Source: Clostridia bacterium (lineage in GTDB: Bacteria; Bacillota; Clostridia; Oscillospirales; CAG-272). Taken from it: a DNA stretch of 64,000 bases. The stretch spans positions 8,309-72,308 of the forward strand of contig JAFVYL010000040.1 of the NCBI GenBank assembly GCA_017508665.1, read 5' to 3'. Made by a program: the position numbers and the translations under genes. Positions 23,256 through 24,135 of this stretch are shown here, in pieces. Each line of letters begins with the position of its first letter. Positions within the stretch are counted from its first letter, which is position 1. The notes beneath the pieces were generated by a model that was given only the letters and a program-made list of their open reading frames with translations, had not been told where the DNA came from and made no database searches.

Positions 23256-23627
23256 ATGAACGAAAAGTCTACCCAGATTCTTGACCTTGTAAAGGGTCTT
23301 ACTATTCTTGAACTCGCTGATCTCGTTAAGGCTCTTGAGGAGGAGTTCGGCGTATCCGCAGCTCCCGTAGCAGCAGTTGGTGCAGTTGCAGCAGCAGCTC
23401 CCGTTGTTGAGGAGAAGACCGAGTTCGACGTTATTCTTACCAACGCTGGCGCTTCCAAGCTTAACGTTATCAAGCTTGTTAAGGACGTTTGCGGTCTTGG
23501 TCTTAAGGATGCTAAGGATCTTGTTGAGTCTTGCCCCAAGACCATCAAGGAAGGCATCTCTAAGGAAGACGCAGAGAAGCTCGCTGCAGACCTCAAGGCT
23601 GCAGGCGCAGAAGTTGAAGTTAAGTAA
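23256..23627 (+). CDS. rplL: 50S ribosomal protein L7/L12
   Basis: Ala/Val hinge [16 protein letters not shown] and C-terminal domain LKDAKDLVE...[21 protein letters not shown]. Confidence 0.95.
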
Positions 23628-23647
23628 TTTCATCTCTAATAAAGGAA

Positions 23648-23677
23648 AGAACGGTCACCTGCTGACCGTTCTTTTTT
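23648..23677 (+). terminator. rplL intrinsic terminator
   Basis: AGAACGGTCA-cctgc-TGACCGTTCT stem followed by T6. Confidence 0.85.
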
Positions 23678-23914
23678 GTTATGTAATAATATTTTCATCA
23701 AAAAGAGTATACTTTTGAAAAATAAAGGAAGACGCAGAGAAGATACTCCAATGTGGCGCAAGCACGCTACGCGTCCTTGGTGCTTCGCACTATGCTCGTC
23801 GCGGACGAGCTACCACGGAGCAATCTGCGCGTGTCTCGCTTACAAGCAAGCTTGCAGACTCGCTTACGCTTGATTATCAAGCTTTCGACCTCAAGGCTGC
23901 AGGCGCAGAAGAAA

Positions 23915-24078
23915 GATAATCACAATCCGAATTGAACGCGCCTAAATTCGTATAAATTTGCGCTTTTTCCCGATTTCTCGCTTGCAAAGTCATACTTTGC
24001 CGCACTTGAATTCAGAAAAAATCATCAAATTTCTATCGTCTTTAGCTCGAAACACGTTCAATTCGAATTGTGATTATC
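23915..24078. mobile_element. MITE-like 164-bp element with 24-bp terminal inverted repeats, non-coding
   Basis: GATAATCACAATCCGAATTGAACG (23915-23938) matches the reverse complement of CGTTCAATTCGAATTGTGATTATC (24055-24078) at 23/24 positions. It interrupts a copy of the rplL 3' end. Confidence 0.4.
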
Positions 24079-24079
24079 C

Positions 24080-24135
24080 AAGTAATTTCATCTCTAATAA
24101 AGGAAAGAACGGTCACCTGCTGACCGTTCTTTTTT
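24080..24135 (+). repeat. perfect 56-bp second copy of the rplL stop codon plus terminator (first copy 23622-23677)
   Basis: AAGTAATTTCATCTCTAATAAAGGAAAGAACGGTCACCTGCTGACCGTTCTTTTTT occurs identically at both positions. Confidence 0.95.

Follow-up and report, generated by a model that had tools for sequence, protein, structure and literature searches.

Behind the rplL gene in the window (the whole 64-kb stretch of DNA that was analysed) lies a mosaic of repeated gene fragments, and we lean towards reading it as the degraded remains of one unit of a non-coding cassette made up of several parts; in a clade of gut Clostridia such units would build up just downstream of rplL. The cassette is built around a structured element of about 135 nt, here called the scaffold, which is previously undescribed and has no match in Rfam.

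The functional rplL gene is preceded by rplJ and the Rfam L10 leader, and its terminator consists of the stem AAAGAACGGTCA/TGACCGTTCTTT followed by a T run (Table 1). A preliminary description of this DNA had reported that three pieces of the rplL 3' end reappear downstream in order, and all three recurrences proved exact: the 18-nt piece AAGGAAGACGCAGAGAAG (18/18), the 25-nt piece GACCTCAAGGCTGCAGGCGCAGAAG (25/25), and the stop codon with its terminator (56/56), the last of which reaches 59 nt if a single mismatch is allowed. The 9 nt (CTCGCTGCA) and 8 nt (TTGAAGTT) that separate these pieces in rplL are indeed missing from the copy, and the element described there as bounded by terminal inverted repeats does have such arms, 24 nt long and 96% complementary. 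The reported 144-nt insert is also present, but is better split into the scaffold, the word CAAGCTT and a TC filler. In 100 dinucleotide-preserving shuffles of the window, none contained the 25-mer twice (allowing up to three mismatches) or the 18-mer twice (allowing up to two), and we dismiss a chance origin of the three exact repeats. The AT-rich spacer after T1 contains AGTATACT, a word that recurs in the spacer of contig L031.

Table 1. Features of the rplL locus and of the mosaic downstream of it, in window coordinates.
Feature	Position	Strand	Basis or remark
Functional rplL (L7/L12, 123 aa), source of the repeated pieces	23256..23627	+	ORF list; Pfam Ribosomal_L12 on identical protein; sequence
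Subdivisions of the rplL 3' end	p1 23562-23579; 9 nt 23580-23588; p2 23589-23613; 8 nt 23614-23621	+	
AACGTTAT^CAAGCTT, element/rplL-copy joining site of full-length cassettes	rplL 23463-23477	+	Sequence
T1: end of rplL (stop codon, 3' UTR) with its intrinsic terminator; 56-nt direct repeat, upstream copy	23622..23677	+	
AT-rich spacer, 47 nt	23678..23724	+	Missing from empty-site strain L003
p1 copy	23725..23742	+	18/18 versus rplL 23562-23579
Structured ~135-nt element (scaffold), (AT)ACTCC to CTTGATTAT	23743..23877	+	Covariance model
CAAGCTT (= rplL 23471-23477) plus TC filler; junction of 111-nt deletion	23878..23886	+	Repeat D11, alignment A5
p2 copy	23887..23911	+	25/25 versus rplL 23589-23613
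Inverted-repeat element, arms 23915-23938 and 24055-24078	23912..24079	+	Stands where rplL has TTGAAGTT
T2: second rplL stop codon, 3' UTR and terminator	24080..24135	+	56/56 versus T1

An exact look-up of the L12 protein led to ten metagenome contigs (L001-L010). Four assemblies besides that of the window, from different samples (L001, L004, L006 and L009), have a 3.2-kb stretch that includes the module and is 99.8% identical to that of the window, and the module is therefore not an assembly artefact, a doubt that the preliminary description had raised about the duplication. As an account of the whole mosaic, a collapsed or chimeric repeat has in its favour the repeat-rich nature of the region and one contig (L026) that fuses rplL to a decayed copy, but given this recovery, and variants of the structure in several more assemblies, we regard it as so improbable as to be negligible. 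In L026 itself (3001-3501), the N-terminal part of rplL runs straight into a decayed pseudo-copy of the C-terminal domain. Either the assembly has joined two repeats into a chimera or a deletion that would inactivate rplL has occurred; the contig shows how the cassette can corrupt rplL calls.

Related strains differ in the number of units they carry. L003, 99.8% identical to the window through rplL, has no module but a single tail and terminator, which runs directly into the sequence found after T2 in the window; it is an empty site, compared with which the window is longer by 458 bases, with the 56-nt repeat on either side of them. Two tandem modules are present in L002 and L007: module B is that of the window, while the left arm of module A measures 16 nt, its "insert" is of another version and its rplL tail runs unbroken from GACCTC to the terminator; other arrangements are seen in L005, L008 and L010. 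The number of units is thus zero in L003, one in the window and two in L002 and L029, and the same L12 protein is shared by strains with zero, one and two. Left and right halves of units have also been shuffled, as the type A scaffold lacks the inverted-repeat element in L002 and is accompanied by it in P0019. Comparing the rplL downstream regions of relatives, the check proposed at the outset, therefore supports this region as a hotspot for gain and loss of units. As a separate observation, the ends of the whole 663-nt contig L027 overlap by 141 nt, which is the assembler's k (k=141), and its 522-nt unit (terminator, spacer, scaffold, pseudo-tail, inverted-repeat element and tail) forms a closed cycle in the assembly graph, which could represent either identical tandem units or a circular molecule.

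The duplicated gene end was first interpreted as the attL and attR left by integration, an idea that is reasonable by analogy, since the 3' end of rplL is an integration site of ICEs and IMEs in streptococci (PMC4701971, PMC4735348, PMC5704250). As that interpretation expects, the duplication flanks extra DNA at a hotspot, with an exact 56-nt repeat and the empty site of L003. On the other side, called genes and Pfam searches of the window, L001-L010, L024, L025 and L031 revealed no integrase, recombinase, transposase, nuclease, reverse transcriptase or cargo near the cassette. An attL/attR origin is possible, but with no integrase, recombinase or cargo in or beside the units it is without support.

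Spelled out, this idea would make the units remnants of site-specific integration: small CIME-like elements without an integrase would have piled up at an att site in the 3' end of rplL, each bringing a replacement tail and displacing the old one. In L002, L024 and L025 the functional rplL and the displaced copy differ in terminator and UTR type, as tail replacement would give, and the tandem stacking of units, the empty site and the documented streptococcal use of the same gene end also agree with it. We nevertheless consider this origin unlikely, as no integrase, excisionase or any protein gene lies in or beside the units at any locus, and the units are only 0.3-0.5 kb long. The flanking repeat moreover varies in extent, from the 56-nt tail (window versus L003) to p2 through the stop codon (L002 versus window), which is easier to reconcile with general homologous recombination than with a fixed core site. 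The same element is also found behind gap and frr, with local duplications there, which a single integrase specificity would not explain.

The order of events, which we reconstructed from about ten lineages and did not observe, departs from that of the preliminary description, where a contiguous rplL tail was duplicated and later took two inserts. Full-length cassettes (L024, L025 and L031) consist of rplL with its terminator, a spacer of 35-190 nt, the element, an rplL copy, and a tail with terminator. The copy extends from ATCAAGCT to the stop codon, about 165 nt, and the element lies at its 5' edge, whereas the window lacks 111 nt of the copy and has p1 upstream of the element; an insertion into a contiguous tail does not account for this. 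Nor did the 144-nt piece arrive late, since it consistently accompanies the duplicated tail in lineages that have diverged from one another. Several lineages have a conserved inverted-repeat element where the rplL copy would otherwise have the 8 nt preceding its stop codon; the cassette of L031, for example, has a homologue of the window's inverted-repeat element in place of TTGAAGTT.

The window, L028 and module A of L002 share a short form (alignment A5, which also displays presence and absence of the inverted-repeat element), in which the equivalent of rplL 23478-23588 (111 nt) is reduced to TC, giving CAAGCTT-TC-p2. CAAGCTT constitutes the first bases of the rplL copy in full-length cassettes. 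Where it closes the "insert", the 11-mer TTATCAAGCTT, found at 23467 and 23874 (repeat D11), thus spans the joint between the element, ending in ...GATTAT, and the rplL copy, which opens with CAAGCTT. In module A of L002 and in L028, decayed rplL continues leftwards from p1, and p1 would then be the 3' stump of a preceding truncated rplL copy or unit. If so, the apparent replacement of 9 nt by 144 nt is probably the product of deletions between stacked units and not of insertion into a contiguous tail. A variant block, GTACACTC instead of rplL's GGCATCTC, is kept in the pseudo-copies of four lineages (L005, L025, L031 and L002 module A, where it sits in the decayed stretch left of p1), although its flanks have been homogenised with the local rplL.

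The scaffold was followed through sequence databases by several routes. Pattern scans gave copies in three species genomes, MAGs of Ruminococcus, Eubacteriales and Clostridia (L014-L016); a strict pattern matched the element in only 3 of 185,579 species genomes. A metagenome pattern scan added one contig with a copy (L021), the other six of its seven matches being dismissed as chance. A spurious ORF that crosses the L005 copy served as a query covering one reading frame and retrieved further ENA contigs, while a six-frame concatenated peptide query found nothing. In all, 13 distinct copies were found. A covariance model built from six of them matches the window at 23743-23882 with 125.8 bits (E 4e-29). 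The twelve distinct copies of full length, in 13 loci, reach 105-166 bits (E 1e-24 to 4e-39), and the thirteenth (L015), which is cut through by a contig end, scores 55 bits. Neither BLAST nor the covariance model detected a second scaffold copy in the 64-kb window.

The consensus of the element begins with T[AG]CTCC and ends with CTTG[AG]TTAT. Its 5' part folds into a four-way junction closed by CUCC/GGAG and GUGGC/GCCAC and its 3' part into a long hairpin, with eight helices in total. The blocks ATACTCC, CCTTGGTGCnnnGCAC, CCACGGAGCAATCTGCG and CTTGATTAT are conserved in modules A and B and in L005, and the hairpins between them vary by compensatory changes. Across the 13 distinct sequences, standard pairs fill 94.7% of the pair cells, and both sides have changed at 19 of the 47 pairs, counts that lean towards the model, as the alignment was fitted to it, but by a margin that is still large: none of 500 shuffles reached the structure values, and partners slid by 1-3 columns pair in at most 47% of cells. 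The counts used for strand assignment, 19 G-U against 9 A-C cells, favour neither strand clearly, 12 of the G-U cells belonging to a single invariant pair, and what folds may be RNA or single-stranded DNA.

In Rfam searches of the window, nothing overlapped the full scaffold at E values up to 10, the only marginal overlap with the region being SraG on the minus strand (23647-23775, E 0.84); the search at gathering thresholds was also empty for the scaffold, and L031 gave nothing at E up to 1. A known RNA family is accordingly rejected. Other candidate identities fared no better. A coding insert is rejected because, although the window's 144 nt can be read through in the rplL frame, variant A measures 142 nt and contains stops in that frame; group II intron domain V, because neither a GNRA loop nor the AGC pairing is present; and a tRNA-like gene, because ARAGORN makes no call. 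Neither the phage nor the plasmid collection contained a match to the cassette, and 17-mer matches to viruses lay inside coding sequence and were attributed to chance.

The scaffold occupies at least four unrelated sites: an rplL copy, at GTTAT^CAAGCT, the rplL 3' UTR, and the regions behind gap (L014, L016) and frr (L030). It is also found upstream of yajC (L033) and elsewhere (L015, L021), always co-oriented with the adjacent housekeeping gene where the neighbour is known. Filled and empty versions can be compared directly at some of these sites. In L016, GGTTTCT-element-CAT lies beside an element-free tandem copy, GGTTTCTCAT (in a shorter reading around the TTTCT/CAT joint, TTTCTCAT); in L005, CTCTAT-element-AAAAAG corresponds to CTCTATAAAG in its own rplL UTR; in L024, AACGTTAT-element-CAAGCTCG corresponds to AACGTTATCAAGCTCG in rplL; and in L030 the element behind frr stands beside an element-free, diverged duplicate of the frr stop region. 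The joints are clean at four sites, with neither scaffold terminal inverted repeats nor a clear target duplication. The left flank always ends in T (TTAT in the three lineages L024, L025 and L031, otherwise CTAT, ATAT, GAT, TCT or CTT) and is often TAT, though not one fixed word, and the scaffold-rplL joint carries the microhomology TTATC.

Two further arrangements were seen around the scaffold. L032 (455-730) has two scaffolds head to tail, the second without its first ~20 nt. Near scaffolds outside the rplL context there is a segment of ~110 nt with a 14-nt inverted repeat, CAACCTCATCCGTC (L014 485-598; L016 6625-6740; L033 ~130-230 and ~600-650), which, relative to the scaffold, points one way in L014 and the other way in L016 and is possibly invertible.

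These contexts bear on the view that the scaffold is an immobile resident, a non-coding RNA or 3'-UTR structure whose hairpins provoke slippage or template switching and so generate local tandem duplications of gene tails. Its co-orientation with housekeeping genes (downstream of rplL, gap and frr, upstream of yajC) is in keeping with such a role, and an eight-helix fold with strong covariation resembles a functional RNA more than transposon ends; tandem duplications adjoin the element in three unrelated contexts, and the TTATC microhomology at the scaffold-rplL joint also speaks for it. We are nonetheless doubtful of this view, because the element is present or absent between near-identical strains (L003 versus the window) and occurs with clean joints at several unrelated loci in different species. 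A good-quality promoter directly upstream in the window and a relative in Rfam are both lacking.

The inverted-repeat element has a different history. Orthologous copies in the window, L002, L027/L032, L028 and L031 share position and orientation, and every known copy lies at this place in the rplL pseudo-tail. Mean column identity is 83% (alignment A4), and 11 of 25 arm pairs have changed on both sides with complementarity kept, so that the element appears old and constrained rather than a recent hit. Of the usual marks of a MITE it has terminal inverted repeats, but neither many dispersed copies, with no second copy in the window, nor a target-site duplication, none being found consistently in four lineages. 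In L008, an inverted-repeat insert of 163 nt and unrelated sequence stands at almost the same place in that contig's own pseudo-tail, which suggests that the spot before the pseudo-tail stop is favoured for inserts. An invertible promoter was considered and rejected, since the four family members are all oriented alike and there is no convincing promoter inside.

Between lineages, the scaffold and the inverted-repeat element have diverged by roughly 20% or more (the L005 and window scaffolds are 74% identical), whereas in most lineages the p2 copy equals the sequence of its own rplL. L028 has GAG in p1, GCTGCT in p2 and a type-a tail and terminator, all matching its own rplL; L025 has GCAGCTGGTGCT in both rplL and the copy; and L032 has a lineage-specific CTT in a p2 that is perfect although the adjoining 24 nt upstream contain five mismatches. 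Exceptions are p2 of L024, with two mismatches, and of L031, with 7/25 (six in a 125-nt BLAST tract and one in the next stretch). We read arm identity as reflecting recombination and gene conversion at the hotspot. Tracts of 18 and 25 nt with non-homologous borders should be poor substrates for gene conversion, and as p2 of L032 is perfect all the same, selection for identity may also contribute; it is mainly this faithful homogenisation of 18-25-nt tracts that keeps us from dismissing a functional role for the arms.

In such a role, the structured element with its rplL-identical flanks would work as a guide or as a device with homology arms, in the manner of an omega-RNA guide, a homing spacer or a decoy for the 3' end of the rplL mRNA, and selection would hold the identity. 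In its favour, the arms change together with the local rplL in four lineages, in which neighbours and both elements diverge; the element also has a sharp 3' boundary with rplL-identical sequence right after it, and the target-side flank is TTAT in L024, L025 and L031. It is improbable all the same: no associated nuclease, recombinase or reverse transcriptase is seen, the p2 mismatches in L031 and L024 amount to decay in the former, and the copies at gap, frr and yajC lack comparably exact arms. The arms have the same sense as the mRNA and so cannot pair with it, and a guide against an essential gene would be self-toxic. It is likewise a long shot that the ~135-nt element is the RNA or ssDNA part of a programmable homing device, in which selected rplL-matched flanks would specify or template the destination, a protein would act in trans, and the 522-nt cyclic contig would be the excised form. 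A diversity-generating retroelement is rejected, as there is no reverse transcriptase nearby and the differences between pseudo-copy and rplL, which involve all four bases (for example GGCATCTCTAAG versus GTACACTCACGG in L031), have no adenine bias.

In the cassette explanation that we prefer, homologous recombination between the repeated rplL tails would add, remove and shuffle units and, together with gene conversion, would keep the arms equal to their own rplL while both elements drift. The shuffled unit halves, the range of zero to two units and the 522-nt cycle of L027 fit frequent exchange among the tails, whereas the variant block GTACACTC, kept between homogenised flanks, weighs against this explanation. 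The scaffold itself may occasionally move, its joints resembling those of IS200/IS605-type miniature elements. Against mobility, the single copy in the window and the presence in so few species genomes are low for a mobile element.

The slot between rplL and cotJCBA has other variable contents. Compared across the window and L001-L010, its genes differ widely between strains whose L12 proteins are identical. In the window, 24407-25489 on the minus strand has a cassette-like arrangement of a 124-aa ORF and a 173-aa SF0329-family protein, each small gene with its own predicted TTTACT-17-TGnTATAAT promoter and a terminator hairpin before it. These minus-strand genes are bracketed by hairpin arrays with variable stems and constant spacers (GATTTCAT/CATGAATTG) at 24140-24380, 24835-24949 and 25583-25745, and 24266-24380 recurs at 24835-24949 with 92% identity. 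Rfam Gut-1 (RF01706) matches below its gathering score of 50 at 24149-24220(-), with 45.3 bits, and at 25676-25745(-), with 33.8 bits; the family has been described only from human-gut metagenomes, its host not known (PMC2864571). Just past cotJA, a 339-aa ORF with RHS repeats (27105-28124, minus strand) hints, together with the small-gene cassettes, at a polymorphic-toxin/immunity neighbourhood. The tmRNA gene at 43810-44175 (minus strand; tag peptide DNNKVAMAA) is an ordinary feature.

With the scaffold, the unclassified non-coding elements of bacteria gain a well-supported member, with its eight helices, strong covariation and no Rfam match, and one that travels with 3'-end copies of essential, highly expressed genes. 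The arms, equal to the living rplL while the rest of the cassette drifts, clearly exemplify concerted evolution in nature on tracts that are very short; should selection and not conversion hold them, they point to an unrecognised sequence-matching mechanism. There is also a practical side, as rplL is a common phylogenetic marker and its repeated tails break metagenome assemblies and yield spurious ORFs and chimeric rplL calls.

Among known systems, the accretion of ICEs, IMEs and CIMEs in streptococci (ICESa2603/Tn5252-type) shares with the cassette the same gene end, flanking tail repeats, tandem stacking and empty sites in relatives. It differs in that the cassette has no integrase or any gene, is 0.3-0.5 kb long and varies in repeat extent and crossover position; its duplicated part includes up to about 165 nt of coding sequence, and its host belongs to another bacterial class. 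Phages and islands likewise leave gene-tail duplications at tRNA, tmRNA and protein-gene 3' ends, with an intact gene followed by a displaced partial 3' copy, but here the displaced copy has been re-homogenised repeatedly and is bounded by a conserved structured element, not by an island.

Miniature derivatives of IS200/IS605 elements (PATEs) are structured, are joined 3' of a short word, and have no terminal inverted repeats or target duplication. The scaffold resembles these elements and the omega-RNA right ends in its T-rich left word (TTAT, CTAT, TTCT), dense structure and sharp 3' boundary, in the lack of terminal inverted repeats and of target duplication, and in its fixed orientation relative to highly expressed genes. 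Unlike PATEs, it has no visible TnpA/TnpB partner, a low apparent copy number and a left-flank word that is not strictly conserved. The pattern scans returned miniature copies only, with no autonomous relative carrying tnpA or tnpB among them, the peptide search spanned one reading frame, and Rfam gave no IS605-orfB RNA match to the scaffold, the only such hit (21 bits, minus strand) being elsewhere, at 23996-24140. REP/BIME/REPIN sequences, BOX, RUP and Correia elements and MITEs are, like the elements described here, short, non-coding, hairpin-forming and situated behind strongly expressed genes, and the inverted-repeat arms keep their complementarity by compensatory changes as REPIN stems do. 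In contrast to such repeats, each element occurs once in the 64 kb, the inverted-repeat element occupies one orthologous position and is not dispersed, and there is no clear target duplication. What lies behind rplL is thus best described as duplicated gene tails and small non-coding elements gathered at a hotspot of recombination, assembled around an undescribed structured element.
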